Shown here: piece by piece, positions 1,991 through 40,794 of the stretch
Layout of the letters: every line of letters begins with the position of its first letter
Position numbering within the stretch: the stretch's first letter is position 1
Assembly (NCBI GenBank): GCA_041659785.1
Contig: JBAZXO010000001.1
Location: 177,649 to 241,648 of the forward strand
Origin: Minisyncoccota bacterium
GTDB lineage: Bacteria > Patescibacteriota > Minisyncoccia > Phycocordibacterales > UBA9973
DNA length: 64,000 bases
Direction: 5' to 3'
Notes under the pieces: generated by a model
Told to the model about the DNA's origin: nothing
Database searches by the model: none
What the model saw: the letters and a program-made list of their open reading frames with translations, nothing else
Translations under genes and position numbers: made by a program

Positions 1991-2464
1991 TTAGGAAACA
2001 CTGATGATTTTATAATTTACTACACCACCTGGAGTTTTTAGGGAAACATTCTCACCTTTCTTTTTACCAAAAAGTGCAACACCTAAAGGAGAACGGTTAG
2101 AAATTTTTCCTTTTAGCATATCTGCTTCCTCTGATCCTACTATAACATAATTTTTCTCTTCCTTGGTGCCTTCTTTCTGTACGACTACCTTAGATCCGAT
2201 TTCAATGATATCTCCACCTCCACCTTTTACCGTTTGGGAAGATTCTAAAATTTGTTCTATTTTTGCAATGCGTGCTTCGAGTTTACCTTGGTCTTCTCGG
2301 ACTTGATGATATTCTGCATTCTCTGATAAGTCACCCAAGGATTTTGCATACTCTAAATTTTTTAGAATTTCTTTTCTTTTAGGTCCTTTCAAATCTTTCA
2401 ACTCCGCTAAAAGTGCCAATCTTTTTTCTTCTGTTATATAATCTCCTGCTTGTTGCATAATCAC
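1991..2464 (-). CDS. greA: transcription elongation factor GreA
   Basis: 157 aa. It has an N-terminal coiled-coil (LALLAELKDLKG...) and a C-terminal FKBP-like domain typical of GreA. Confidence 0.85.
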   Translation of the reverse strand: MIMQQAGDYITEEKRLALLAELKDLKGPKRKEILKNLEYAKSLGDLSENAEYHQVREDQGKLEARIAKIEQILESSQTVKGGGGDIIEIGSKVVVQKEGTKEEKNYVIVGSEEADMLKGKISNRSPLGVALFGKKKGENVSLKTPGGVVNYKIISVS

Positions 2465-2504
2465 ATTATACTATATTTTTTTACAAAAAAGTCAATAATT
2501 TTAA

Positions 2505-2552
2505 CAAAAAAAAAGAGGGCCCGATGTAGATATGGAGCCCTCTGTCACCGAA
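2505..2552 (-). terminator. intrinsic terminator for the minus-strand small ORF
   Basis: On the minus strand the stem AGAGGGC...GCCCTCT is followed by a T9 run. On the plus strand this reads A9 then the stem. Confidence 0.55.
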
Positions 2553-2563
2553 ATGGTGTGAGA

Positions 2564-2797
2564 TTATTTCTTGTTGGCTTGTTTCTTTTCTTGAAGAGCA
2601 TGATTGATATGAAGCTTAAGATGCCACAAAAAGATGTCAAATTGTGCCAGAGCAACTATATCACCTTTTTTTTCCAAAAATTTATTGATAAAATCTTCGG
2701 TAGCTTCAGGTGGTAAGCGGTGTTTATTGTCTTTCCAGATTCTTTTAAAATTAAACTCAATAGCACCAGCCTGAGCTGCTGTTATTTCCTGGGGCAT
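2564..2797 (-). CDS. hypothetical protein, 77 aa
   Basis: ORF with a downstream terminator. No motif recognised. Confidence 0.35.
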   Translation of the reverse strand: MPQEITAAQAGAIEFNFKRIWKDNKHRLPPEATEDFINKFLEKKGDIVALAQFDIFLWHLKLHINHALQEKKQANKK

Positions 2798-2953
2798 TTC
2801 ATCTCCTTAAGAGAATTAGGGTGACGGAATTGTCACCAAGTTGAAAAGGACGTTCTCCCTTTTTCTACACTTAAACTTGATTTATGTCAAGCTTTATCAC
2901 TTCTCATTCAACGAATATTTGCAAAAAATCTTTTATATGGTAATCTTGTTCAT

Positions 2954-3187
2954 ATGGCAAAAACAGTAATAGAAGTGAAGAAAAATCCAAACGAAAACAA
3001 CGCGAGCGTATTGCGTCGTTTTTCTCGTAGAATTCAAGAATCCGGTATTGTCCGCAAGGTCAAAGGCGCTCGCTACAACTTGAGAAAAGAATCCAAACTT
3101 AAAGTTAAAAAAAGTGCTCTAAAGAGAATGGGCCGAAGAAAGGAAATCGAGAAACTCAAAAAGCTCGGTAAGATGGTAACAAAGTAA
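2954..3187 (+). CDS. rpsU: 30S ribosomal protein bS21
   Basis: 77 aa, very basic. MAKTVIEVKKNP...LRRFSRR...KRMGRRKEIEK matches the S21 pattern. Confidence 0.8.
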   Translation: MAKTVIEVKKNPNENNASVLRRFSRRIQESGIVRKVKGARYNLRKESKLKVKKSALKRMGRRKEIEKLKKLGKMVTK

Positions 3188-3192
3188 ACCAT

Positions 3193-3645
3193 ATGGAGGA
3201 AAAACTTTCTATGATAAACAAAACAAAAACGAAAACTCCTCGTCTACCTTTTCTTGATCTTAAAAATGACATTTTAGGGAAAAACTATTCCCTCTCTATC
3301 GCTTTCGTAGATGAAAAAAAATCTAGAGAAATAAATAAGGAATACAGAAACAAAGATAAATCTACAAATATTTTATCTTTTCTTTTACATAAAAACGAAG
3401 GTGAAATAATTATCTGCCCACCCGTCGTAAAGCGTGAAGCTAAAAATTTTGAAAGAAATTTCGACCAATTTATGGGATTTTTAGTTATCCACGGAATGCT
3501 TCATTTGAAAGGACACGAACATAGTAGTACAATGGAGAGACTAGAAGAAAAATATGATAAGAAATATTTCAGTGGGCATAGACGTGGGATCATCCACGAC
3601 ACGAGTCGTGGTAGGAGAATTTCTAAAAGGAGAAAAAAATCCTAA
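3193..3645 (+). CDS. ybeY: rRNA maturation endoribonuclease YbeY
   Basis: HGMLHLKGHEH zinc-binding motif (H-x3-H-x5-H), about 150 aa. The non-conserved C-terminal tail overlaps the ftsA start. Confidence 0.8.
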   Translation: MEEKLSMINKTKTKTPRLPFLDLKNDILGKNYSLSIAFVDEKKSREINKEYRNKDKSTNILSFLLHKNEGEIIICPPVVKREAKNFERNFDQFMGFLVIHGMLHLKGHEHSSTMERLEEKYDKKYFSGHRRGIIHDTSRGRRISKRRKKS

Positions 3646-4717
3646 GATTATTGGTATGGGTGAAAGTATCACTCTAGGCATGAGGCACGGCTACGTCGTA
3701 AACTCTCCACTGGTCACTGCTTCAGTGAGAAATGCAGTTGCGCTCGCAGAAAAAACTTCTGGCTTAAAAATAAAAAAATGTTTTGTTTCACTTTCTGGCA
3801 CCACGCTCAAAAGTGAGATAAGCGGAGGGAGCACTATCGTTTCAAAAGCTGACGGTGAAGTGACCTCTCTCGATGTGAACAAAGCACTTCAGGATTGTGA
3901 GGACAATTTAAGCTTGGGAAATAAAAAAATTATCCATATATACCCCATTTCTTACCGACTCGATGGGAAAGAAGTCTTGGGTAGATTAGAGGGTATGCGC
4001 GGAACAAAGCTTGAGATTAAAGCACTTTTTGTCACTTATTCCGTTGTACACTTAGAGGATTTACTAGGGGCAATAGCAGAAGCTGGAGTAGAAACTATAG
4101 ACGTGATCGCCTCTCCACTCGCCATCAGCAACATCGCTCTAACCGAAAGACAAAAGATCGTAGGCGTAGCACTCGTAGACATCGGAGACCAGACGACATC
4201 TCTTTCTGTTTTTGAAAATGGATTACTCATGTCAGTCGCTACTTTCTCTATAGGTTCGACTGAAATAACAAATGACATTGCACTCGGTTTTAAAATTTCC
4301 TTAGAAAAAGCAGAAGCTCTAAAGCTTGGAAATAGCACAGAAGAATTTTCAAAGAAAAAACTCGACGAAATCATCGAAGCACGACTATGTGACATCTTTG
4401 AATCAATAGAAAATAATTTAAAGAAAATAAAAAGGTCCGAGCTCTTACCGGCCGGTATAGTATTCGTGGGTGGTGGTGCAAATACTCCAATGCTCGCAGA
4501 ATTATCTAAATCTACACTCAAGCTCCCCTCTAGTATTGGTGCAACAGAAATCTTTGGCAACACAAAAACGAAACTTCGTGACCCAGCTTATTTTAATGCA
4601 ATTGGTTTACTCACCTCCGGAAAAGATACAGGTGGCTATGAAGGCAACTCTTTCAAAAAACTCTTAAAAGACCTAGAAAACACAATAAAATCAAGCATAA
4701 AACAGCTGATGCCATAA
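3554..4717 (+). CDS. ftsA: cell division protein FtsA (actin-like ATPase)
   Basis: The N-terminal VGIDVGSSTTRVVVGE phosphate-1 motif is present. Length is 387 aa. It sits immediately upstream of ftsZ. Confidence 0.9.
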   Translation: MIRNISVGIDVGSSTTRVVVGEFLKGEKNPKIIGMGESITLGMRHGYVVNSPLVTASVRNAVALAEKTSGLKIKKCFVSLSGTTLKSEISGGSTIVSKADGEVTSLDVNKALQDCEDNLSLGNKKIIHIYPISYRLDGKEVLGRLEGMRGTKLEIKALFVTYSVVHLEDLLGAIAEAGVETIDVIASPLAISNIALTERQKIVGVALVDIGDQTTSLSVFENGLLMSVATFSIGSTEITNDIALGFKISLEKAEALKLGNSTEEFSKKKLDEIIEARLCDIFESIENNLKKIKRSELLPAGIVFVGGGANTPMLAELSKSTLKLPSSIGATEIFGNTKTKLRDPAYFNAIGLLTSGKDTGGYEGNSFKKLLKDLENTIKSSIKQLMP

Positions 4718-4865
4718 TATTAGTTTTTAGATACTAGAAGCTAGTAAACTAGAACCCAGAAGCTAGAACCTAATACCTAATCTATGGGTTTGCTTTTTTT
4801 TGCTCTAGTGCTAGTATGATTTCATATAAGTTAAATCTTTAATAAGCCTACGGGCAAGTAAAATT

Positions 4866-6071
4866 ATGCCAAAAATAAATCAAGAAATAGAGAGTTTCGC
4901 TCGAATCATGGTCATCGGAATCGGTGGATCAGGAAAGAATGCAGTCAACCATATGATAAACTCTAAGGTCAAAGGTGTGTCTTTTATTTGTATGAACACT
5001 GACACGCAAGACTTACATCACTCTCTTGCTGAGAAAAAAATTCACATTGGAAAAAATTTAACTAAAGGTCTCGGCGCAGGTATGGATCCAGAAATTGGAA
5101 AGAAGGCTGCCGAAGAAACAAAGTCTGAAATACAAGATGTCATCAAAGGTGCAGACATGATCTTCCTCGCTTGCGGAATGGGTGGAGGTACTGGAACAGG
5201 TGCAGCACCAATCGTCGCTCGTGCAGCGAGAGAACAAGGCATCCTCACTGTCGCTGTCACCACCAAGCCATTTTTCTTCGAAGGAAATCACCGTATGAAA
5301 ATAGCTGAGAAAGGTATTGAAGAATTAGCTAAAGAAGTAGATGCAATAATCATCATTCCAAACGACAAATTGCTTCAATTAGCTGAACAAAACACCAATT
5401 TTAAAGACGCTTTCGTAAAATGCGATGACGTATTACGTCAAGCAGTAGAAGGGATTTCTGACCTTATCACCACTCCTGGCGTCATAAATGTAGACTTTGC
5501 AGACATTAAGGCCATTATGGCAAATGCTGGTAGCGCCCTTATGGGTATCGGTAGTGCTTCTGGTGAAAAGCGTGCAGAAAAGGCAGCCTTGGGAGCTATC
5601 AATTCCCCTCTTCTCGAGGTTTCTATTCATGGTGCTAAAGGAGTGCTCTTCGCTATCTCTGGAGGAGACGACCTAACTATCAATGAAATCCAAGAAGCTG
5701 CAAAAATAATCACTGAATCAATCGACAAAGATGCGAAGGTAATCTTCGGAACAATTCGTGATGAGAAATTAAAAAAGGGAGAAATCAAGGTCACCGTCAT
5801 TGCAACCTCCTTCCCTGCTGATATGCCTCGCAAGAATCTTTTTAGCGCAGCTACTACAGGCCTAATGAAAGATGAAACTCCTGTTGCTGTAAAAAAAGAA
5901 ATACATAATACCATCCAGAACAATATGCAGGGCGTAAATCAAAATAATAATTTGAGCAATAATGACTTCATAAAGAAAATGGATAAAAAGGAAGTCAAAG
6001 AAGAAATTATCGAAGATGATGGCGATGACTGGAGCGCTGTTCCAGCCTTCCTCCGAAGAACTAAAAAATAA
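4866..6071 (+). CDS. ftsZ: cell division GTPase FtsZ
   Basis: Tubulin signature GGGTGTGAAPIVA, the N-terminal GIGGSG motif, and a disordered C-terminal linker. Confidence 0.95.
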   Translation: MPKINQEIESFARIMVIGIGGSGKNAVNHMINSKVKGVSFICMNTDTQDLHHSLAEKKIHIGKNLTKGLGAGMDPEIGKKAAEETKSEIQDVIKGADMIFLACGMGGGTGTGAAPIVARAAREQGILTVAVTTKPFFFEGNHRMKIAEKGIEELAKEVDAIIIIPNDKLLQLAEQNTNFKDAFVKCDDVLRQAVEGISDLITTPGVINVDFADIKAIMANAGSALMGIGSASGEKRAEKAALGAINSPLLEVSIHGAKGVLFAISGGDDLTINEIQEAAKIITESIDKDAKVIFGTIRDEKLKKGEIKVTVIATSFPADMPRKNLFSAATTGLMKDETPVAVKKEIHNTIQNNMQGVNQNNNLSNNDFIKKMDKKEVKEEIIEDDGDDWSAVPAFLRRTKK

Positions 6072-6111
6072 AATAGCCAAAAGCTTGACGGCTAGTGTAT
6101 AATAAACGTAT

Positions 6112-7065
6112 ATGACATACGACCTAATAATTATTGGAGGTGGGCCTGCCGGTGTTGCAGCGGCTGTTTATGCTGCTCGTAAAAGGTTAAAAACACTTTT
6201 TATTACTTCCGAATGGGGCGGGCAAAGCATCGTTTCAGAAAAGATTTTCAACTGGATTGGCACACCAGCCATCTCGGGCAATGACCTAGCAGAAAATTTA
6301 AAGAGTCACGTGTTAGCCAATGCAATAAATGATAAAAACCCAGATTCTACATTAAAAATAAAAGAAGGAGAAAAAGTAACTTCCCTGTCAGGTGTTGGAA
6401 ACCCGACAGAAGGATTTTCAGTAAAAATAGAATCAGGTGAAGAATTTTTAACTAAAACAATTTTAATAGCTACAGGTAGTGTGCGCAGAAAGCTTATTGC
6501 AAAAAATGCAGATGAACTTGAACACAAAGGCCTCACTTATTGTGCTTCTTGCGACGGGCCACTTTTTGAAAATATGGATGTGGCTGTAATTGGTGGAGGA
6601 AATGCCGCATTCGAAACAGCCGCTCAGCTACTAGCCTATTGTAAGTCTGTCATCCTCATAAACAGAAGCGACACTTTCCGGGCAGATGAAATTACTGTGG
6701 AGAGAGTTTCTAAAAATCCTAAAATATCAATAGTAAAAAATGTGGATATTTTAGAGATACAAGGCAGTAAATTTGTAGAAGGCTTAATTTATCAGGACAG
6801 AACTACAAAAGTACAAAAAGAATTAAAAGTATCTGGAATTTTTGTTGAAATTGGACAGATTGCAAATACTGATTTTGTAAAAGAATTAGTACCCCTAGAT
6901 GCAGTAGGGAAAATAAAAATTGATGCTTGGTCACAAAAAACTGAGACGAAAGGCATCTGGGCCGCTGGAGATTGTACCAATATCCTCTACCACCAGAACA
7001 ACATTGCTGCTGGTGATGCTGTGCGTGCTGTGGAAGATATCTATCTAGCAATTCACACAAAATAA
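6112..7065 (+). CDS. trxB: thioredoxin-disulfide reductase (FAD/NAD(P) oxidoreductase)
   Basis: N-terminal GGGPAG FAD motif, redox-active CASCDG (CxxC), and a second GGGNAA dinucleotide motif. Confidence 0.85.
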   Translation: MTYDLIIIGGGPAGVAAAVYAARKRLKTLFITSEWGGQSIVSEKIFNWIGTPAISGNDLAENLKSHVLANAINDKNPDSTLKIKEGEKVTSLSGVGNPTEGFSVKIESGEEFLTKTILIATGSVRRKLIAKNADELEHKGLTYCASCDGPLFENMDVAVIGGGNAAFETAAQLLAYCKSVILINRSDTFRADEITVERVSKNPKISIVKNVDILEIQGSKFVEGLIYQDRTTKVQKELKVSGIFVEIGQIANTDFVKELVPLDAVGKIKIDAWSQKTETKGIWAAGDCTNILYHQNNIAAGDAVRAVEDIYLAIHTK

Positions 7066-8821: not shown

Positions 8822-10039
8822 ATGCAAAACCCATATCAAAACGCAATGGCACAGTTAGACAAGGTCGCTAAGGTCAAGAATTTAGGTGACGAATTTATTG
8901 CTCGCATGCGAGTACCTGACAGAGATGTCAGAATTTCAATCCCTGTAAAAATGGATGACGGAACACTTAAAATATTTGAAGGATACAGAGTAGAACACAA
9001 CAATGCCCTAGGACCCTACAAAGGAGGAATAAGATACCATCATGATACTGAAATAAATGAAGTGAAGGCACTCGCCTTCTGGATGGCAATAAAATGCGCT
9101 GTAGCTGGCATAGCAATGGGTGGAGGTAAGGGTGGCATAACCGTTGATCCGAAAAGTTTATCTAAAGGAGAACTCGAGAGACTTTCTCGTGGATGGGTAA
9201 AAAGATTAGCAGATATTTTAGGACCAAATAAAGATGTTCCCGCACCAGATGTAAATACAACTCCAGAAATAATGGACTGGATGGCTGATGAATTTGAAAA
9301 AATTACTGGTGACAAGACGAGAGCTACATTTACAGGAAAACCTCTCGGTAAAGGCGGATCAGAAGGTAGAGGTCCAGCTACAGGACTCGGTGGATTTTAT
9401 GTTTTTGATTCTCTTCGTGCACAACTAGGCTTACCAGAGAAATGTGAAGTTGTCGTGCAAGGCTTCGGAAATGTTGGACTAAATGCTGCACAGATCTTCA
9501 TCGAACATGGACACAAAGTTCTCGCAATTTCAGACTCAAAGGGTGGAGTTTATAATGCAAGTGGTCTCGACATAAATAAACTCGTTGAACATAAAAAGGC
9601 TAATGGTTCCCTTTCCGGTTTTGAAGGTAGTAAAAATGTCACAAACGAAGAACTTCTAGAAATACAATGCGATGTCTTAGTCCCTGCTGCTTTTGAAAAC
9701 CAAATAACTGATAAAAATGCAAAGAATATCAAAGCAAAGGTTGTCTTAGAGCTTGCAAATGGCCCGACAACACCAGAAGCTGATGAAATCTTATTTAGTA
9801 AGGGCATAGCTGTGATCCCAGACGTTTTAGCTAACTCTGGAGGAGTCACAGTTTCTTTCTTCGAATGGGAACAAAATTTAAAAAATGAACATTGGACTGA
9901 AAAAGAAGTATTCGACAAACTTCTCGTATTGATGAATGACGCTGCACAAAAAACATTCGCAAAAGCAAAAGAATCAAATACTCATCTTCGCATAGGAGCT
10001 TTTATTTTAGCTCTTGAAAGAATTAAAGCTAAGATGTAA
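8822..10039 (+). CDS. gdhA: glutamate dehydrogenase (Glu/Leu/Phe/Val dehydrogenase family)
   Basis: KGGIRYH catalytic-lysine motif and GFGNVG Rossmann motif. Length 405 aa. Confidence 0.9.
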   Translation: MQNPYQNAMAQLDKVAKVKNLGDEFIARMRVPDRDVRISIPVKMDDGTLKIFEGYRVEHNNALGPYKGGIRYHHDTEINEVKALAFWMAIKCAVAGIAMGGGKGGITVDPKSLSKGELERLSRGWVKRLADILGPNKDVPAPDVNTTPEIMDWMADEFEKITGDKTRATFTGKPLGKGGSEGRGPATGLGGFYVFDSLRAQLGLPEKCEVVVQGFGNVGLNAAQIFIEHGHKVLAISDSKGGVYNASGLDINKLVEHKKANGSLSGFEGSKNVTNEELLEIQCDVLVPAAFENQITDKNAKNIKAKVVLELANGPTTPEADEILFSKGIAVIPDVLANSGGVTVSFFEWEQNLKNEHWTEKEVFDKLLVLMNDAAQKTFAKAKESNTHLRIGAFILALERIKAKM

Positions 10040-10045
10040 TATAAA

Positions 10046-10072
10046 ATTTACGAAGGACAGACCTTCGTAAAT
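10046..10072. repeat. conserved hairpin ATTTACGAAGG-acaga-CCTTCGTAAAT (copy 1 of 2)
   Basis: 11-bp perfect stem directly after the gdhA stop. The same stem occurs at 40159-40183 in inverted orientation. Confidence 0.6.
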
Positions 10073-10098
10073 GCGCGGTTAGCTGTTTTGGTGGATAA
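10073..10098 (+). repeat. degenerate duplicate of the tRNA-Val 5' half (GCGCGGTTAGCTgttttGGTgg)
   Basis: The first 12 nt are identical to the tRNA-Val 5' end located 73 nt downstream. The remainder is similar but decayed. Confidence 0.5.
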
Positions 10099-10145
10099 CG
10101 TTATATTTAGATAGAAAGTCGATTGCATTATAAATAATGCAATTT

Positions 10146-10218
10146 GCGCGGTTAGCTCAGTTGGTAGAGCGTGTCTTTGACGTAGACAAGGTCACAGGTT
10201 CGATCCCTGTATCGCGCA
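10146..10218 (+). tRNA. tRNA-Val (anticodon GAC)
   Basis: Acceptor GCGCGGT/ATCGCGC. D-arm GCTC-AGTTGGTA-GAGC. Anticodon stem TGTCT/AGACA with loop TTGACGT. T-arm ACAGG-TTCGATC-CCTGT. Confidence 0.8.
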
Positions 10219-10240
10219 CATTAAATTTGCAAAAAAATAA

Positions 10241-10268
10241 CCCGCACAAATTTCGTGCGGGCTTTTTT
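10241..10268 (+). terminator. rho-independent terminator after tRNA-Val
   Basis: CCCGCAC-aaatttc-GTGCGGG stem followed by T6. Confidence 0.7.
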
Positions 10269-10301
10269 GTTTGTGGAGTTCATATTCCGAACTCCGAGAT
10301 A

Positions 10302-10910
10302 TTATGACTTCAGGTCGTCCCCAAAATCATCAACTTCTTCTTCAATCTTGGGAGGAATCAGTTTTATATCCCATCCCTCATACCCAGTAGAAAGTATTAT
10401 GTGGACCTTCTCCTGACGAAGGGTGTGGGCTAAAATTGACCCTACGCCATTAAGAAACTCCTCAATGATGTGTCGAGATGCGGTCATGGGATTTACGTAA
10501 CCGCTATAGATTAACTGCGGTTCTCTTTCTGTGGACGCATCCCCACCAGATCCATCCATTTGAGCACTGAGATACGTCTTCGTTGTGAAGTGCCCGTCCA
10601 CGTAGAATTTGTTTTCCAGAACCGATTGCCGAAGGAAAGCTTCAATGAGCCCCATCGCCACTTCGGGATGATGCTCTTCGATCCTTTTGCCAATCCGACA
10701 CCGGACCATGCCGCATTGAACCGAAAATTTCCACACAACATTGCGTGAGCCTTGAGTGTACTCGAAGGCAGGATGTATTCTGCCCCTTGCTATGGCTTGA
10801 ATTTCTTTCTGATGCTCGGTGAGCATGGTGTCCCTTTCATTGTGCGAGGCTGTGCTCGCGTAGGTTGGGGGTTGTGAGCGACTTCTAGGCCACTCGTTGG
10901 AATAAAACAA
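10302..10910 (-). CDS. hypothetical protein with acidic C-terminal tail, encoded by a compositionally foreign (GC-rich) gene. TTG start at 10910, or ATG at 10826.
   Basis: ORF of about 200 aa whose DNA is roughly 50% GC, against about one-third in flanking DNA. It ends ...EEEVDDFGDDLKS. No family recognised. Confidence 0.5.
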   Translation of the reverse strand: MFYSNEWPRSRSQPPTYASTASHNERDTMLTEHQKEIQAIARGRIHPAFEYTQGSRNVVWKFSVQCGMVRCRIGKRIEEHHPEVAMGLIEAFLRQSVLENKFYVDGHFTTKTYLSAQMDGSGGDASTEREPQLIYSGYVNPMTASRHIIEEFLNGVGSILAHTLRQEKVHIILSTGYEGWDIKLIPPKIEEEVDDFGDDLKS

Positions 10911-10933
10911 AGATCAAAATATCACCTTTAGAT

Positions 10934-10962
10934 AATATAGCATTCTAAAACACTACTGTCAA
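10934..10962 (-). promoter_or_regulatory. sigma70-like promoter TTGACA-17-TATATT for the GC-rich ORF
   Basis: On the minus strand: TTGACA (plus coordinates 10957-10962), a 17-nt spacer, then TATATT (10934-10939). Confidence 0.45.
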
Positions 10963-11013
10963 GTTTTGATGCTTGGAAAATAAGGACTAATTTGATACAA
11001 TGGATAAACTTTT

Positions 11014-12159
11014 ATGAAACTTTTAAGCATAGAAACGTCTTGCGATGACACAGCAATAAGTATATTCGAAGTAAATGGAGGCATTCAAAATGCTTCTTTT
11101 AAGGTGCTCGCAAATAATTCAAATTCTCAGATAAACATACACATCCCCTATGGTGGCGTGTACCCAGCACTCGCAAAAAGAGAACATGAGAAAAATCTGC
11201 CAATTCTGCTTGAAGCAAGCTTGCTACAGGCTAAACTTAAAAAAGGTCGAACCTTTTTGAATTCCCAAGGTCCGACCTTGAATCCGGGCATAGATGCCAT
11301 CGCTGTGACTTATGGACCAGGTTTAGAAATGTCTCTTTGGACAGGACTCACTTTTGCAAAAGATTTAGCCAAGAAATGGAAAGTGCCTTTAATTCCCACG
11401 AACCACATGGAGGGTCATGTACTTTCAATTTTTGGAAAAGATAAAGGAAAATTTAAAATATCAAAATTAAAATTGCCCATGCTTACCCTCTTGGTATCTG
11501 GAGGGCATTCACAGCTCGTACTAACAAAAAAATGGATGCAATATGAAATAATCGGAGAATCATTGGATGATGCAGTCGGCGAAGCTTTCGATAAGGTCGC
11601 CAGAATGCTCGACCTCCCCTACCCAGGTGGCCCACAGATCTCAAAACTTGCAGAATCTTCCCGTACACCAGGTGTCCGGGAAAACAAAATAAAGCTTCCT
11701 CGCCCAATGTTGAAATCTAAGGATTTTAATTTCTCTTTTTCTGGACTTAAAACAGCTGTACTTTATTTAATACGAGACTTAGGTGGCATAGAAAAGTTAA
11801 GTGAGAAAACAAAAAGTGAAATAGCTATGGAATTTGAAAATGCTGCTATCGAATGCCTAGTTTATAAAACAGCTAAAGCAATCGAAACGTATAAAATCAA
11901 AACTCTAATCGTAGCTGGAGGAGTAGCTGCAAATAAACATTTAAGAAATGAAATAAAAAAAGTTACCACCGCCAAGGCGGGGCAAGCCGGTAAAAAAGTA
12001 AAACTTCTATTGCCTCTAAATGAACTGAACGGAGACAACTCTCTAATGATTGGCATAGCTGGTTACTTGAATTACATAAAAAATAAAAAGAAAGTCCCTA
12101 AACTAGATAGCATAAAAGCGACTGGTAATTTAAGGCTCGGAGAGTCGCCAAAACAATAG
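11014..12159 (+). CDS. tsaD: tRNA N6-adenosine threonylcarbamoyltransferase TsaD (Kae1/Gcp family)
   Basis: MKLLSIETSCDDTAISI N-terminus and an HMEGH metal-binding motif. Length 381 aa. Confidence 0.9.
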   Translation: MKLLSIETSCDDTAISIFEVNGGIQNASFKVLANNSNSQINIHIPYGGVYPALAKREHEKNLPILLEASLLQAKLKKGRTFLNSQGPTLNPGIDAIAVTYGPGLEMSLWTGLTFAKDLAKKWKVPLIPTNHMEGHVLSIFGKDKGKFKISKLKLPMLTLLVSGGHSQLVLTKKWMQYEIIGESLDDAVGEAFDKVARMLDLPYPGGPQISKLAESSRTPGVRENKIKLPRPMLKSKDFNFSFSGLKTAVLYLIRDLGGIEKLSEKTKSEIAMEFENAAIECLVYKTAKAIETYKIKTLIVAGGVAANKHLRNEIKKVTTAKAGQAGKKVKLLLPLNELNGDNSLMIGIAGYLNYIKNKKKVPKLDSIKATGNLRLGESPKQ

Positions 12160-12172
12160 CGGGTATGATATT

Positions 12173-14320
12173 ATGTCTTATATGAACGAAAAGCTGCTCA
12201 AGCCCTACGACCCTAAAAATACTGAGGAAAGAATCTACAAACTTTGGGAAGAAAGCGGTTTTTTTAATCCCGACAACTTACCTGACGACAGAAAAGAAGC
12301 GTTTACCATAATAATGCCACCAGCAAATGCTAATGGATCACTTCATGCAGGACATGGTTTAGTCATGACTATTGAAGACATCATTGTTCGATATAAAAGA
12401 ATGCAGGGTTTTAAAACACTTTGGCTTCCAGGACTCGACCATGCTGGCTTTGAAACACAAGTAGTTTACGAAAAACAATTAGAAAAAGAAGGACGAACAA
12501 GGTTCGGGATGGATCCAGAATTATTGTATAAAGAAATTTTAAATTTCACTCTTACTAATTCGGTAAATATAAAATCTCAAATAAAACAAATGGGAGCATC
12601 GTGTGACTGGTCACGCGAGAAATTTACCCTAGACGATGATGTAGTAAAAATTGTTTATCAAACATTCAAAAGAATGTATGCAGATGATTTAATATATAGA
12701 GGAAATAGAATTGTTTCTTGGTGTTCAAAACATCAGACTTCTTTTTCTGATTTGGAAATTAAAGATGAAGAACGTATAGATAGTTTATATTATTTAAAAT
12801 ATGGGCCATTCGTTATAGCCACCTCAAGACCAGAAACGAAATTCGGTGACAAATATGTGGTAATGCACCCTGACGATAAAAGATATTTGGAATACAAAGA
12901 TGGTCAAAAAATCGACTTGGAATGGATTAACGGCCCCATAACAGCAACTGTGATAAAAGACGACGCTATTGATATGGAATTCGGAACAGGTGTAATGACC
13001 ATCACTCCTTGGCATGACAATACTGATTTTGAAATTGCAGAAAGGCATAAACTAGACAAAGAACAAATAATAGATGAATTTGGTAAATTGCTTCCAGTTG
13101 CTGGAGAATTTGCTGGACAACATATAAAAAAAGCAAGAGCACTTATAATTGAAAAACTTCAAACAAAAGGATTAGTAGAAAAAATAGAAGAAAACTATAA
13201 ACACGTAGTTAGAACATGCTATAAATGTGGAACTGTAATTGAACCACAAATAAAAAGTCAGTGGTTCGTAAGGATGAAACCATTAGCCGAGAAAGCATTA
13301 GAAAAAATAAATAGCGAAGAAATAAAATATATTCCTGAACATTATAAGAAAATAACAACTTACTGGTTAGAAAATATTATGGATTGGAACATTTCTAGAC
13401 AAATCGTCTGGGGTATTCCTATACCAGCAAAAATCTGCACTAAATGCGGACATGGAATGGTGGATCTTGAAAATAAAATAACAAAATGTACTTCTTGCTC
13501 CGGTGAGGTAATAAAAGATAATGATACTTTTGATACTTGGTTCTCATCTGGACAATGGCCTTATGTAGTACTCGGATATCCTGACAAAAAAGATTTTAAA
13601 ACTTTCTATCCTACTAATGTGATGGAAACTGCCGGAGATCTTGTATTCTTCTGGGTTGCTCGAATGATAATGCTCGGACTTTACGTCACAGGTGAAATTC
13701 CATTTAAAACTATATATATGCACGGAATGGTACTCGATGCCAAGGGACAAAAAATGAGCAAGAGTAAAGGAAATGTGATAAACCCACTAACCCTGACAGA
13801 AAAATATGGCACTGATGCATTTCGAATAGGTATGGTTGTCGGTAACACTCCTGGAACATCTCTTTCTCTCTCTGAGGATAAAATACGAGGTTACAAAAAC
13901 TTCGCAAATAAAATCTGGAATGCGACACGCTTTGTATTAGACAATACGAAAAATTTTATTATTCCCGAAATACCAGAATATGATGAAGAAGATAAAAAGT
14001 CAGATGAAGAGTTAAAAGCTCTGATGCAAGAAATAACAAAAGAGATGGATGAATACAAATTCTACATCGTAGCAGAAAAACTTTACCATTATTTCTGGCA
14101 TACTTTCGCTGATATCATTATTGAACGATCAAAAAAGAAGATTTCAGAAAATAAAAACGCCGACTCTGCAAAAGCTCTACTATATACACAACTCACTACC
14201 CTGCTAAAAGCTCTTCATCCATTTATTCCATTCGTTACAGAAGAAATTTGGTCGATGTTACCTAAAGAAAACAACCAGCAAAATAAAAATCTTTTAATAA
14301 TAGAAAAATGGCCTCAGTAA
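12173..14320 (+). CDS. valS: class I aminoacyl-tRNA synthetase, most likely valyl-tRNA synthetase lacking the C-terminal coiled coil
   Basis: PPANANGSLHAGHG (HIGH) and KMSKSKGN (KMSKS) motifs, with a CP1 editing-domain-sized insert. At 715 aa it is short for ValRS, so an IleRS or LeuRS relative cannot be excluded. Confidence 0.7.
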   Translation: MSYMNEKLLKPYDPKNTEERIYKLWEESGFFNPDNLPDDRKEAFTIIMPPANANGSLHAGHGLVMTIEDIIVRYKRMQGFKTLWLPGLDHAGFETQVVYEKQLEKEGRTRFGMDPELLYKEILNFTLTNSVNIKSQIKQMGASCDWSREKFTLDDDVVKIVYQTFKRMYADDLIYRGNRIVSWCSKHQTSFSDLEIKDEERIDSLYYLKYGPFVIATSRPETKFGDKYVVMHPDDKRYLEYKDGQKIDLEWINGPITATVIKDDAIDMEFGTGVMTITPWHDNTDFEIAERHKLDKEQIIDEFGKLLPVAGEFAGQHIKKARALIIEKLQTKGLVEKIEENYKHVVRTCYKCGTVIEPQIKSQWFVRMKPLAEKALEKINSEEIKYIPEHYKKITTYWLENIMDWNISRQIVWGIPIPAKICTKCGHGMVDLENKITKCTSCSGEVIKDNDTFDTWFSSGQWPYVVLGYPDKKDFKTFYPTNVMETAGDLVFFWVARMIMLGLYVTGEIPFKTIYMHGMVLDAKGQKMSKSKGNVINPLTLTEKYGTDAFRIGMVVGNTPGTSLSLSEDKIRGYKNFANKIWNATRFVLDNTKNFIIPEIPEYDEEDKKSDEELKALMQEITKEMDEYKFYIVAEKLYHYFWHTFADIIIERSKKKISENKNADSAKALLYTQLTTLLKALHPFIPFVTEEIWSMLPKENNQQNKNLLIIEKWPQ

Positions 14321-30888: not shown

Positions 30889-32649
30889 TTATAACAAAAA
30901 ATTCTGATTAATGATCCCCCTCTTTGCATTAATTATACCAGAAGTATAAACAGTAGTATATGATTCATCTGGATTCTTGCGGTCTATGGTAATGTGATAT
31001 TCGCCTTTAGCAAGCAGACAATAATAATGACCATATTTATCAGCAACACGGTGGAATATCTCTTGCGGAAAACCTTTTCTAAACACGCGGACAATAGCAA
31101 AGGACATTGGTGTTTTGGTTTTAGCATCCATAATCGTCCCTAGAGTTTTAGGTTTTAAAAATAGCCGAATGATAAGAAGTAAAACGTAAATAGCAATAAT
31201 TATAAGATTCAACTTATTAGGATTAATAGCCAACAGAACAGTAGCAGAAATAAATCCAAGATAAAAAAGATTGGTTGAAATAATATTAATTATCCTTGCG
31301 TTTTTTGAATAAAATACCATGAGTTTCTTGTCACGTTTTGCAAACTCATTCCAGTCGAAGGCAAGGGGGTCCATTGGGATGTTTTTAGTGATGACTGTAT
31401 TTTCATTTAGAATAACTTCTCCACCGAAGTATAGATTGTCATAAAGTTCATCTCTAGTCTTTCCAGCAAGTTTTATGGAAGGTGCTTGATAGTTTGTTTT
31501 TCTTGTTGTAATTTCGTACGGACCTGGAGGTGCCAGAAAACCAAAACGTCCATCTAAGTCTGTTATGGCTGTGCCCACTTCTTTTCCTTCTTTATTTTTT
31601 AGAACTACATAGACTGGATCGAGTGGTTGCTTGGTAACACTATCATAAACCGTCCCCCAGGGTGCACGTTTTTTCCTTAAACCAAGTGATACCAGAAGAA
31701 CACTCCAAAGACGAAAAATTAAAAGGGGTACATCGGCAAAAGAAAATACATTCCCAGCAAGGGAAATTGCGACGACAGAACTTCCACCAAGAACACCGAC
31801 ACCGGAGACAGTTTTTGAAGCGATGGAACCAGCAGAAGTATTAACAAATCTAACAACATTTTTTCTTATTGTCCTAGTTGTTTTATCTACAAGAGTTACT
31901 CCTTTTTTAAAAGACTCAAAAATTGTTGTAGTAACTGAAGGTAATGATTGAGTGCCGCCACTGACTCCACCCCCAACATTTCCCGTAAATCCTGGGGTTG
32001 GTGTTGGACTCGGAATCGGAGTAGGTGTGGGATTAGGAGTCGGGGTTGGGGTTGGGGTAGGAGTTGGTGTTGGTGTAGGAGTTGGTGTCGGGGTCGGGGT
32101 TGGGGTTGGGGTTGGTGTAGGATGACCTCCCCCACCACTTTCGCTAGGACGTAAACTAAATGGTTTCCAATCAGTTTGCAAATAGAAATTATCAGTTCCG
32201 CATGAATTATCATCTAAACAATTAAAACTAATCCATCCTAAATTTTGACTCCATGCATAACCATGAAAAATTCCTAAATTATCAATAGTAACTCCTCCTC
32301 GTGTGGGCGCAAAATTAATCCAACCAGTATTTTGCCCCCAAGCATAACCAGCGAGATGACCTTCCGCATCATTAGTCACACCTCCATTCGTTGGTGCTAA
32401 ATTGATCCACCCAGCTAATTCACTCCATGCATTACCTGTAAGTCTAGAATCTGTAACATGTACATTTCCTAAAACAAGAGCAAAATTAATTTTCCCGACA
32501 TTACTATCTAAACCTTTTGCGTATTTATGAACACCATCTATCGTCCCATCAGTAGCGGAAGCATATGCAAAAAGTGGTACTGAAAACACAAAAAGACCTA
32601 AAAGTAACAAATTTTTTAGATATAAACTAAAAATTTTTTTATTTAACAT
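30889..32649 (-). CDS. secreted multi-domain protein: three GWINF/GYAW repeats, a (PT)n linker, transmembrane segments and two carboxypeptidase-regulatory-like (DxDGxF) domains
   Basis: Signal peptide. Repeats GWINLAPTNGGVT..GYAWGQNTGWINF x3. A PTPTPT... linker of about 35 aa. LKNKEGKEVGTAITDLDGRFGF motif. Confidence 0.55.
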   Translation of the reverse strand: MLNKKIFSLYLKNLLLLGLFVFSVPLFAYASATDGTIDGVHKYAKGLDSNVGKINFALVLGNVHVTDSRLTGNAWSELAGWINLAPTNGGVTNDAEGHLAGYAWGQNTGWINFAPTRGGVTIDNLGIFHGYAWSQNLGWISFNCLDDNSCGTDNFYLQTDWKPFSLRPSESGGGGHPTPTPTPTPTPTPTPTPTPTPTPTPTPTPNPTPTPIPSPTPTPGFTGNVGGGVSGGTQSLPSVTTTIFESFKKGVTLVDKTTRTIRKNVVRFVNTSAGSIASKTVSGVGVLGGSSVVAISLAGNVFSFADVPLLIFRLWSVLLVSLGLRKKRAPWGTVYDSVTKQPLDPVYVVLKNKEGKEVGTAITDLDGRFGFLAPPGPYEITTRKTNYQAPSIKLAGKTRDELYDNLYFGGEVILNENTVITKNIPMDPLAFDWNEFAKRDKKLMVFYSKNARIINIISTNLFYLGFISATVLLAINPNKLNLIIIAIYVLLLIIRLFLKPKTLGTIMDAKTKTPMSFAIVRVFRKGFPQEIFHRVADKYGHYYCLLAKGEYHITIDRKNPDESYTTVYTSGIINAKRGIINQNFLL

Positions 32650-40156: not shown

Positions 40157-40158
40157 CC

Positions 40159-40183
40159 TTTACGAAGGGCTGTCCTTCGTAAA
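40159..40183. repeat. conserved hairpin TTTACGAAGG-gctgt-CCTTCGTAAA (copy 2, inverted relative to copy 1)
   Basis: Same 10-11-bp stem as at 10046-10072. The loop is approximately the reverse complement. Confidence 0.6.
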
Positions 40184-40189
40184 CTAGGT

Positions 40190-40218
40190 TTGACAAAAGT
40201 GTTATGAGGTGGTACTAT
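40190..40218 (+). promoter_or_regulatory. sigma70-like promoter TTGACA-17-TACTAT
   Basis: TTGACA at 40190-40195, a 17-nt spacer, then TACTAT at 40213-40218. A GGAG Shine-Dalgarno lies 6 nt upstream of the ATG at 40311. Confidence 0.45.
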
Positions 40219-40310
40219 TCAGGTTGAATGTGCACTTCTTCGACAAATTGATCCCTTGGCATCTCGCCAAATGGACCACATCTTTTTCTCAAAAAAAACT
40301 GGAGATTCCG

Positions 40311-40742
40311 ATGAGACAAGAAACCAAATCATCTCAAGAAGCATTTCATGACACAACCCTTTGGATACTCTTTTTTCTAGTTTTGTTTACGGTGTCAAGT
40401 TTTTGGACATTTGTGACATCCGAACAAATACCGAAACCGAAACAAGAAGGGGTCGTTCTCCGCATGGAGGGATGGGCAAAGCTGATGAAGAAACCCATTC
40501 CCATTGTTCGTTCTGATATTTCCATCCAACCAACCATTGGGCTCACGCAGGTGGAGATTGAGATGGGCAGGGTCCAGATGACTGCATTTTATCCAGGAAG
40601 ACTTGGAGATATCGGTTTCTGGAAAGTGGGAGATGAGGTTATGGTGACATCGTTCCAATGTAAGGGTACAGGAACGCTAAGCCAGACTTCTCCGCCTTCA
40701 ACAATCTATATCGTGATCGGATATCGCCCTCAAAAGCAATAA
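40311..40742 (+). CDS. hypothetical membrane-anchored protein, 143 aa, encoded by a compositionally foreign (GC-rich) gene
   Basis: One N-terminal transmembrane helix (LWILFFLVLFTVSSFWTFV) and a beta-rich C-terminal domain. GC is well above flanking DNA. It has a canonical Shine-Dalgarno and promoter. Confidence 0.5.
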   Translation: MRQETKSSQEAFHDTTLWILFFLVLFTVSSFWTFVTSEQIPKPKQEGVVLRMEGWAKLMKKPIPIVRSDISIQPTIGLTQVEIEMGRVQMTAFYPGRLGDIGFWKVGDEVMVTSFQCKGTGTLSQTSPPSTIYIVIGYRPQKQ

Positions 40743-40761
40743 TCCTTTCACTATCCGCACA

Positions 40762-40794
40762 AAAGCCGCATGGTTCGCCCAGCGGCTTTTTTTA
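40762..40794 (+). terminator. rho-independent terminator
   Basis: AAAGCCGC-12 nt-GCGGCTTT stem followed by T7. Confidence 0.65.

Follow-up and report, generated by a model that had tools for sequence, protein, structure and literature searches.

A putative SAM or SAM-AMP lyase-like gene in an old single-gene insertion at a tRNA-Val of a Minisyncoccota bacterium

We analyzed a 64,000-nucleotide (nt) stretch of the genome of a Minisyncoccota bacterium (Patescibacteriota; GenBank assembly GCA_041659785.1, contig JBAZXO010000001.1, positions 177,649 to 241,648; hereafter the window), in which a 174-amino-acid (aa) open reading frame (ORF) of atypical base composition lies on the minus strand between tRNA-Val and tsaD. 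On balance, and with moderate confidence, we read this gene as a domesticated representative of a branch of the S-adenosylmethionine (SAM)/SAM-adenosine monophosphate (SAM-AMP) lyase superfamily that is confined to Patescibacteria, with expression from a promoter and leader that are strongly conserved. The ORF family is best read as homologous to the trimeric PII-fold lyases, that is, the SAM lyases of phages and the SAM-AMP lyases of CRISPR loci and phages. The gene lies in an old insertion at the tRNA-Val 3' end, which forms a self-contained expression cassette composed of a strong sigma-70 promoter, a conserved structured leader of about 100 nt, the 174-aa ORF, a hairpin that is likewise conserved, and a terminator shared with the tRNA. 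In the mechanism that we propose, the predicted trimer would bind SAM or SAM-AMP at its subunit interfaces, residues E102 and Q138 would cleave the substrate to methylthioadenosine (MTA; or MTA-AMP) and homoserine lactone, and this cleavage would take away a cofactor or signal needed by defence systems.

A protein family of Patescibacteria with a predicted lyase-like fold

A first-pass annotation of the window had assigned the protein to no recognisable family. This held for Pfam, PHROGs, PADLOC and NCBIfam, which returned nothing at E≤10 for the window ORF and only noise for all 57 members of the family described here, but remote homology pointed to SAM and SAM-AMP lyases. A word-indexed search of 5.8 billion proteins found only two close homologs, one from the same organism and one from L001, a 1164-bp metagenomic contig (relatives are designated by locus numbers). 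A full HMMER scan of 1.84 billion representatives added six distant relatives of 147–169 aa, and a follow-up profile search reached 55 protein clusters, all named 'hypothetical', with a family length of about 150 aa. When genomes were scanned with the core members, 14 loci were recovered, all of them in Patescibacteria metagenome-assembled genomes, spanning Saccharibacteria, Nomurabacteria, Falkowbacteria, Staskawiczbacteria, Gracilibacteria, Peribacteria and Paceibacterota. Searches with the two-sequence alignment found nothing in genome or viral contigs and only the same organism in metagenome contigs, and tblastn with core member P0011 found nothing in 50,697 phage genomes. The family is unannotated and, among the genome loci recovered, has so far been found only in Patescibacteria. 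The window protein is a divergent member of it, at 25–30% identity.

When a profile of the diverse family alignment (A4) was compared with the PDB, the sole match was 9lqd_A, 'SAM lyase', over nearly its full length (E 0.0018), and hhalign aligned the family and the lyase in the same register (E 0.003). The 9lqd_A chain has the residues (W64, C66, E71, F84, Q108 and T112) that were reported for the SAM-AMP lyase of Clostridium botulinum (PMC12255297). AlphaFold2 run with the 57-sequence alignment gave a monomer model with a predicted local distance difference test score (pLDDT) of 86.8 and a beta-alpha-beta-beta-alpha-beta core, with strands at 32–51, 79–90, 97–111 and from 141 (141–156) and helices at 54–70 and 118–135; the model from the two-sequence alignment, also a monomer, had a pLDDT of 46 and was unusable. 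As modeled, the monomer fits the ferredoxin-like beta1-alpha1-beta2-beta3-alpha2-beta4 fold of the PII superfamily. In accord with this, the best Foldseek match in the PDB was the phage SAM lyase Svi3-3 (6zm9; E 2.4e-5, probability 1.0), followed by 6znb, and ranks 1, 2, 3, 5 and 7 were all SAM or SAM-AMP lyases (6zm9, 6znb, 9gab, 9lqd/e). Structure matches in BFVD comprised 13 small uncharacterised phage proteins at E<1e-3.

Structural conservation among the known lyases is confined to two residues, a catalytic Glu that ends the T-loop and a Gln in the B-loop (PMC7877911, PMC12255297), and both have counterparts in the family. E102 of the window protein aligned with E71 of the C. botulinum enzyme in both hmmsearch and hhalign (counterparts E69 in Svi3-3 and E68 in T3); a Glu occupies this position in 96% of the family, including the window protein and P0002. 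Q138, which lies between helix 118–135 and the strand from 141, aligned with Q108 of the C. botulinum enzyme and Q104 of Svi3-3; it is invariant across the 57 family sequences, is present also in the ortholog from the relative L026, and is retained in P0002. The spacing between the two residues is 36 in the window protein, compared with 35 and 37 in the known enzymes.

The SAM-AMP lyase of C. botulinum (9gab, 9gad, 9lqd-h), which belongs to a CorA-associated type III-B CRISPR locus and is grouped here with the phage candidate AcrIIIB4, is the one protein of solved structure that the family profile matched. It shares with the family the PII-like ferredoxin fold and the aligned T-loop-end Glu and B-loop Gln, whereas sequence identity is about 10–12%, the family has a longer beta2-beta3 hairpin (T-loop) together with an additional helix at the N-terminus and a tail at the C-terminus, conservation does not extend to W64, C66 and T112, and the window protein lacks an aromatic residue equivalent to F84. 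Its setting also differs: the family genes have no CRISPR or CorA locus nearby, and all 14 family genome loci are in Patescibacteria. Svi3-3 is the closest structural match, with the equivalents of E69 and Q104 and their spacing kept. The T3 gene 0.3 protein (SAMase; anti-restriction and anti-BREX) is likewise a small single-domain protein with a strong promoter and a structured leader. Unlike the genes for these phage lyases, the window gene is chromosomal, has long been retained under purifying selection and is not phage-borne.

Genes adjoining the family members

In L003/L004, L019 and L020, the gene directly downstream of the family gene encodes an NrN homolog with an intact DHH motif, which matched DHH_CorA in PADLOC (3e-33 and 1e-30) and 9lq9, 'NrN', in the PDB (6e-24). 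Two enzymes that degrade SAM-AMP are known from CorA-type type III CRISPR systems, the phosphodiesterase NrN and SAM-AMP lyase, and one normally replaces the other (PMC10600005); an alternative SAM-AMP degrader thus adjoins the family gene, but here the two genes occur together. The L005 family gene is followed after 10 nt by a gene that resembles STIV_B116 (Pfam, 1e-23) and Csx16 (PADLOC, 1e-18). We take it to be a member of the DUF1874 family, which includes the AcrIII-1/Crn2 ring nucleases. This DUF1874-like partner was seen in L005 only and the NrN partner in L003/L004, L019 and L020 only; the other recurrent partners were unknown proteins or DEAD/HA2 helicases. PADLOC detected no Cas10 or CorA among the neighbours, the only matches being weak Cas3-like helicase similarity and a QatD/TatD-like match. 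The N-terminal 160 aa of the NrN-like partner was considered as a second copy of the family domain and rejected.

Some further features recur around the family gene. An unknown protein of about 440–510 aa adjoins it in L030 (6573–7886) and L023 (1346–2311), and an NYN-domain RNase lies upstream in L030/L031 (L030 4777–5265) and farther off in L006. In L003, three direct repeats of 80–140 nt (4142–4280, 4922–5011 and 5632–5779; 82–86% identical) precede one gene after another in the neighbourhood of the family gene and its NrN-like partner, and these may be reiterated promoter or leader modules.

Weight of the evidence for a lyase

Several results weigh against the lyase reading. Both profile comparisons were borderline: the hhalign probability was 10%, a profile of the core members only (A5) had no lyase match in the PDB and missed 9lqd, and hhalign found no similarity between the family and the T3 SAMase. 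The Foldseek TM-scores were only 0.46–0.58, and generic PII/CutA folds came next at E of ~1e-2. The window protein keeps 17 of the 51 strongly conserved family columns and is without the family motifs EGYG, VYAW and NPLY, and in the syntenic L026 ortholog the catalytic Glu is replaced by Lys. Within 6 kb of the NrN-linked loci, neither Cas nor CorA genes were detected, and the surroundings of the window gene held no CRISPR array and no gene for Cas, CorA, NrN or a phage protein; the window gene is neither phage-encoded nor part of a CorA-type type III CRISPR locus. Furthermore, the T3 SAMase is toxic at high expression (PMC7877911), and toxicity would be expected of a SAM-destroying enzyme placed under a constitutively strong promoter.

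Part of this evidence would suit the main alternative, a non-catalytic PII-like ligand binder that acts as a sponge or sensor of a nucleotide or SAM-derived signal in which the fold was kept and the chemistry was lost or changed in a divergent clade. PII-fold proteins commonly bind ATP, cyclic di-AMP or MTA at trimer interfaces (PMC12255297); the replacement of the catalytic Glu in L026 and the disappearance of most family motifs from the window protein agree with a binder, and fast protein evolution beneath a highly conserved promoter and leader fits one engaged in an arms race. On the other hand, E102 and Q138 are both retained in the window protein and P0002, the ratio of nonsynonymous to synonymous substitution rates (dN/dS) of 0.08 denotes a constrained function, and the partners seen at other loci, NrN and a ring-nuclease-like protein, are enzymes of degradation. 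We regard a pure binder as rather unlikely and prefer the lyase-like reading.

A single-gene insertion at the 3' end of tRNA-Val

The first-pass annotation had listed, in order, the gdhA stop, a hairpin with an 11-bp stem, a copy of the 5' end of tRNA-Val, tRNA-Val, a terminator and an opposite-strand ORF, and all were found at the positions it gave. The features of the locus are as follows.

8822–10039: gdhA ORF
10046–10072, plus strand: gdhA-side hairpin, ATTTACGAAGG-ACAGA-CCTTCGTAAAT, 11-bp stem, outside the cassette
10072–10095, plus strand: tRNA-Val 5' fragment, outside the cassette; together with the hairpin it spans 10046–10096
10146–10219, plus strand: tRNA-Val(GAC), whose 3' end is the left junction of the insertion
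10220–11013: inserted cassette, 794 bp, all DNA from the tRNA-Val 3' end to the tsaD ATG; guanine-plus-cytosine (GC) fraction 0.442
10229–10272, detected on both strands: bidirectional intrinsic terminator, stem 10241–10261, CCCGCAC/GTGCGGG between an A-run and a T-run
10275–10295, minus strand: post-stop hairpin, GGAGTTC-GGAATAT-GAACTCC, directly past the ORF stop codon
10302–10826, minus strand: 174-aa ORF, starting at the ATG at 10826, with a conserved Shine-Dalgarno sequence
10302–10910, minus strand: longer form of the ORF, 202 aa if read from a TTG
10827–10927, minus strand: 5' leader of the ORF, about 100 nt long
10876–10895, minus strand: leader hairpin P1, GAGUGGC/GUCGCUC
10860–10875, minus strand: C-rich linker of the leader, between P1 and P2
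10844–10859, minus strand: leader hairpin P2, GCGAG/CUCGC
10832–10838, minus strand: Shine-Dalgarno sequence, contained in the invariant leader segment AAUGAAAGG; the GAAAGG that precedes the ATG is invariant
10962–10934, minus strand: ORF promoter, -35 TTGACA, 17-nt spacer with a TGn extended -10, -10 TATATT
10973–11001, plus strand: tsaD promoter within the inserted DNA, TTGGAA-17(TGn)-TACAAT

The 174-aa gene is the sole ORF in the 794-bp insert, which is flanked by gdhA and tsaD, and the terminator at 10229–10272 serves tRNA-Val and the ORF alike. An ORF of about 200 aa had been proposed; the 202-aa frame from TTG does exist, but comparison supports the ATG start and 174 aa. The public NCBI annotation covers only the C-terminal 99 aa (10302–10601, P0001), from an internal GTG. 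The consensus promoter seen in the first pass was confirmed, with the extended -10 as an addition; its score of 11/12, TG included, makes it a joint-best promoter-like match across the first 20 kb. Since the number of promoter-like matches in the region was not above that in shuffled sequence, the scan says nothing about the consensus of other genes.

Relatives at the tsaD locus were retrieved through TsaD homologs; the site is occupied in the window, L001, L025 and L026 and empty in L027 and L028. In L028 (TsaD 75% identical) and L027 (76%), the 3' end of tRNA-Val abuts the tsaD ATG, CGCGCACC being directly followed by ATGAAACTTTT, and in L028, which has gdhA just upstream, gdhA, tRNA-Val and tsaD are contiguous without the ORF. 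L001 is collinear with the window (tsaD, promoter, leader, ORF, hairpin, terminator, tRNA-Val). L026 (TsaD 80% identical, 239-kb contig) has the order gdhA, tRNA-Val, terminator, hairpin, a 166-aa minus-strand ORF, leader, TTGACA promoter and tsaD, and L025 (84%) has the promoter and leader up to the point where its contig ends. Because the site is empty in two relatives and occupied in four lineages, 10220–11013 is an insertion exactly at the tRNA 3' end, in agreement with the first-pass view of a gene foreign to this site. The comparison places the insertion in an ancestor common to the lineages of the window, L001, L025 and L026.

The age assigned to the insertion was not upheld. Acquisition had been called recent, but the same cassette stands in the same place in lineages whose TsaD identity falls to 80%. 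The synonymous divergence (dS) of tsaD next to the ORF is 0.88–1.15 between the window and L001, which indicates that the two genomes are well diverged. As the insertion is common to lineages at a tsaD dS of ~1 and the ORF is under purifying selection, it is old rather than recent.

The tsaD promoter within the insert keeps its hexamers and TG wherever it is covered in L001, L025 and L026, whereas tsaD of the empty-site relatives has no such upstream promoter DNA. Judged from this comparison, the insertion gave tsaD its own promoter, and tsaD is now separated from tRNA-Val. The presence of this promoter inside the insert may partly explain why the hexamers and TG of both divergent promoters are invariant in the covered lineages.

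As for the vehicle, the first pass had proposed the remnant of an integrative element. Insertion at a tRNA 3' end agrees with this, as does an att-like repeat in L026, where 15 nt of the tRNA-Val 3' end (TCCTCTATCGCGCAC) are directly repeated without mismatch, at 3124–3138 and 3241–3255, 117 nt apart. This repeat, the scar of another integration, flanks a separate 117-nt segment between the tRNA and the cassette terminator, not the cassette itself, but it shows that tRNA-Val is in use as an integration site in the clade. Two negative results weigh against such an origin: the 794-bp insert of the window carries no integrase or recombinase gene, and there is no direct repeat of the tRNA 3' end (attR) in 9000–12500 of the window, the tsaD border included. 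The original vehicle of the cassette was probably an integrative element.

The cassette resembles tRNA-targeted islets and decayed integrative elements in its position precisely at a tRNA 3' end when compared with empty sites, its atypical composition, its one-gene cargo with promoter and terminator of its own, and the att-like repeat at the same tRNA in L026. It differs from them in that the insert lacks an integrase and a flanking tRNA 3' repeat, is only 794 bp long, and is ancient and fixed; in addition, the other family members are not adjacent to tRNAs, and tRNA adjacency was rejected as a family-wide trait. At the junctions, every locus with the cassette has AAACTTTTA immediately before the start of tsaD and a second occurrence within it (ATAAACTTTTATGAAACTTTTAAG; window 10220–10235 and 10990–11030). 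The left junction ATTAAATTTGCAAAAA and the tsaD start ATGAAACTTTTAAGCA agree at 10 of 16 positions, which is too weak to use as a decayed target-site duplication.

Hairpin and tRNA fragment on the gdhA side

An exact copy of the first 12 nt of tRNA-Val stands at 10073–10084, where 0.08 such copies would be expected by chance, and the similarity extends to 24 nt at 83% identity (10072–10095). In the ORF-less L028, a 14-nt exact copy of the tRNA-Val 5' end lies upstream of tRNA-Val at 3824–3837 and resumes as TTGGTAGA beyond a 66-nt GC-rich, hairpin-forming insert. Because the fragment is present also in this empty-site relative, it is unrelated to the insertion. Conversely, L002, a 98.8%-identical strain that carries the ORF, lacks both hairpin and fragment (61-nt indel). 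The first pass had taken the two as evidence of the insertion event; as scars of an element they were rejected, since their place is on the gdhA side, where they do not border the ORF. Copies of the tRNA-Val 5' end occur 70–100 nt before the intact tRNA in several relatives, that of L026 at about 3040–3060.

These observations bear on the possibility that the gene arrived recently by horizontal transfer and is all that is left of an element that integrated at the tRNA and lost its integrase, with fragment and hairpin as scars. Such an event would account for the precise insertion at the tRNA-Val 3' end relative to the empty sites, for the outlying third-position composition of the ORF, and for the integrase traffic at tRNA-Val that the L026 repeat reveals. 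However, the cassette is common to lineages at 80% TsaD identity and dS ~1, the tRNA 5' fragment sits on the opposite side of the tRNA, is present in L028 and is missing from L002, neither an integrase nor a 3' repeat at the tsaD-side border was found, and the GC of the gene is elevated in every host examined. A recent acquisition is thus quite unlikely, and an old insertion, later domesticated, remains our preferred account.

A second copy of the gdhA-side hairpin, TACGAAGG-N5-CCTTCGTA, was noticed at 40158–40184. Directly after it come a promoter (TTGACA-17-TACTAT), some 90 nt of leader, an ORF for a membrane-anchored protein of 143 aa (40311–40742) and a terminator. This ORF has no Pfam match, and its GC at third codon positions (GC3) is 0.44, the second highest of the window. 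The region 40158–40790 looks like a second self-contained GC-rich cassette.

Base composition of the gene family

The GC content of the ORF is 47–48%, slightly below the ~50% given in the first pass, compared with 36.2% for the window; its composition is indeed atypical, in the top 0.3% of 525-bp segments. Its GC3 of 0.49 is the highest of the 56 window ORFs (mean 0.274, standard deviation 0.06). This had been read as the mark of a fresh arrival, but the excess is family-wide: at every locus measured the family gene was at least as GC-rich as its locus, with an excess of up to +0.25. In L011 the gene has a GC of 0.61 against 0.36, and a GC3 of 0.79 against 0.26 in its neighbours (z=8); the corresponding GC values of gene and locus are 0.63 and 0.39 in L013, 0.56 and 0.40 in L016, 0.53 and 0.36 in L030, and 0.47 and 0.37 in L026. 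The excess disappears in the GC-rich hosts L010 and L020.

Nucleotide similarity among loci stops at the ORF borders. Contexts vary, with some shared synteny such as rpsP-family gene-khpA-trmD in L005 and L016, and GC-rich neighbours form islands in L003, L005 and L013. These data fit a small GC-rich unit that spread horizontally time and again and was then kept for long; the excess might also come from selection acting on the nucleotide composition of the gene itself.

Two observations on GC-rich DNA are added here. In L005, a GC-rich island of about 4 kb (2400–6600; 0.50–0.60 against 0.36–0.40) with small ORFs lies between rpsP and khpA/trmD and includes the family gene and the DUF1874/Csx16-like gene, whereas the related L016 has the family gene alone there. 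In the window, a GGGGTT-type tandem repeat at 31994–32121 (periods 6, 18, 24 and 48), within an ORF (30889–32649) with a signal-peptide-like N-terminus, corresponds to another GC-rich stretch.

We also considered whether this is an ordinary, vertically inherited housekeeping gene, its GC3 raised by expression or codon selection and the empty sites being secondary deletions. The strong promoter, purifying selection, stable synteny in four lineages and placement of the family gene within an rpsP-khpA-trmD operon in L005 and L016 are all compatible with that. Expression-driven codon bias was, however, rejected as the source of the high GC3, since genes for ribosomal protein S16 (rpsP; GC3 0.36 and 0.25 in L005 and L016, beside 0.66 for the family gene) and, in the window, enolase and GAPDH (0.27–0.28) are not GC3-rich. 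The patchiness of the family (55 clusters in varied contexts), the 19% identity of the protein where TsaD is 80% identical, and the same abutment of tRNA and tsaD in two independent relatives also speak against it, and we consider it very unlikely.

Coding status and conserved regulatory segments

Between the window and L001, differences in the ORF fall 43, 40 and 96 times at codon positions 1, 2 and 3, with a dN of 0.285 and the dN/dS of 0.08 given above, which indicates that the ORF is under purifying selection. The L001 ortholog has a +1 frameshift in its N-terminal part, after the RIHP codons (L001 544–550), which may be an assembly error or make it a pseudogene. The acidic C-terminal tail seen in the first pass is present in the window protein but is not conserved among orthologs. 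It is hardly tenable that there is no real gene here and that the GC-rich transcript is a structured non-coding RNA: a GC-rich segment with a strong promoter and terminator in an AT-rich genome, the annotation of just a 99-aa piece by NCBI and the L001 frameshift would suit this, but the third-position excess and dN/dS already refute it, and there are protein homologs in distant lineages, a confident predicted fold and no Rfam match.

The segments around the ORF changed far less than the ORF itself. Identity between the window and L001 is 35/35 for the promoter segment, 64/70 (91%) for the GC-rich leader, 27/30 for the post-stop hairpin segment, 69% for the terminator and 66% for the ORF body. 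The 1-nt indel in the leader implies that the leader is non-coding, and the changes in the terminator stem are compensatory, so that pairing is kept. The hexamers and TG of the ORF promoter are invariant in the window, L001, L025 and L026, with a variable spacer in L025 and L026. The post-stop hairpin has the same sequence in the window, L001 and L002 and a related form in L026; it occurs once within the window, and the leader is likewise unique there. As the L026 protein is 19% identical to the window protein although its TsaD is 80% identical, promoter and leader are, by these alignments, far more conserved than the protein that they precede.

All four lineages keep P1 (GRGYGGC/GUCGCUC), the C-rich linker, P2 (GCGAG/CUCGC, with a variable loop) and the invariant AAUGAAAGG. 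Changes in P1 are one-sided only (A-U to G-U and U-G to C-G), and the folding z-score of the leader is about -2.1 to -2.4. With no double compensatory changes and a modest z-score, the leader structure is plausible but unproven. Rfam searches at E≤10 over 9950–11100 gave no leader match, only weak terminator-driven matches at about 10230–10340, and at the gathering threshold the whole window matched tRNAs only.

Discussion

SAM-AMP signalling was first described in 2023. To our knowledge, NrN and SAM-AMP lyase have so far been found only in CorA-type type III CRISPR loci, apart from one phage candidate. A lyase-like family in genomes of the candidate phyla radiation, sometimes placed before NrN and without nearby CRISPR genes, would extend SAM-AMP chemistry to a large and poorly understood radiation, and would supply candidate anti-defence or off-switch enzymes. 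If the protein were instead an inactive PII-like binder, the finding would shrink to an unusual but ordinary orphan gene.

A broader proposal, which we put forward tentatively and hold to be unlikely as a whole, is that the family represents unrecognised CRISPR-independent signal-degrading modules of Patescibacteria, each a SAM-AMP-lyase-like gene with or without an NrN or ring-nuclease-like partner, that spread as GC-rich single genes and were then domesticated. The two-hairpin leader of the window clade might then be a ligand- or protein-responsive translational switch that restrains a toxic lyase.

The locus is also a clean case, with empty and occupied sites, of a single-gene insertion at a tRNA that re-wired the essential tsaD. 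Since its promoter, leader and 3' hairpin are conserved well beyond the fast-evolving coding sequence, the leader offers a concrete target for the study of a possible RNA switch. If the broader proposal of signal-degrading modules is true, bacteria of the candidate phyla radiation, or their mobile elements, would make or counter sulfonium-nucleotide signals of the SAM-AMP type.

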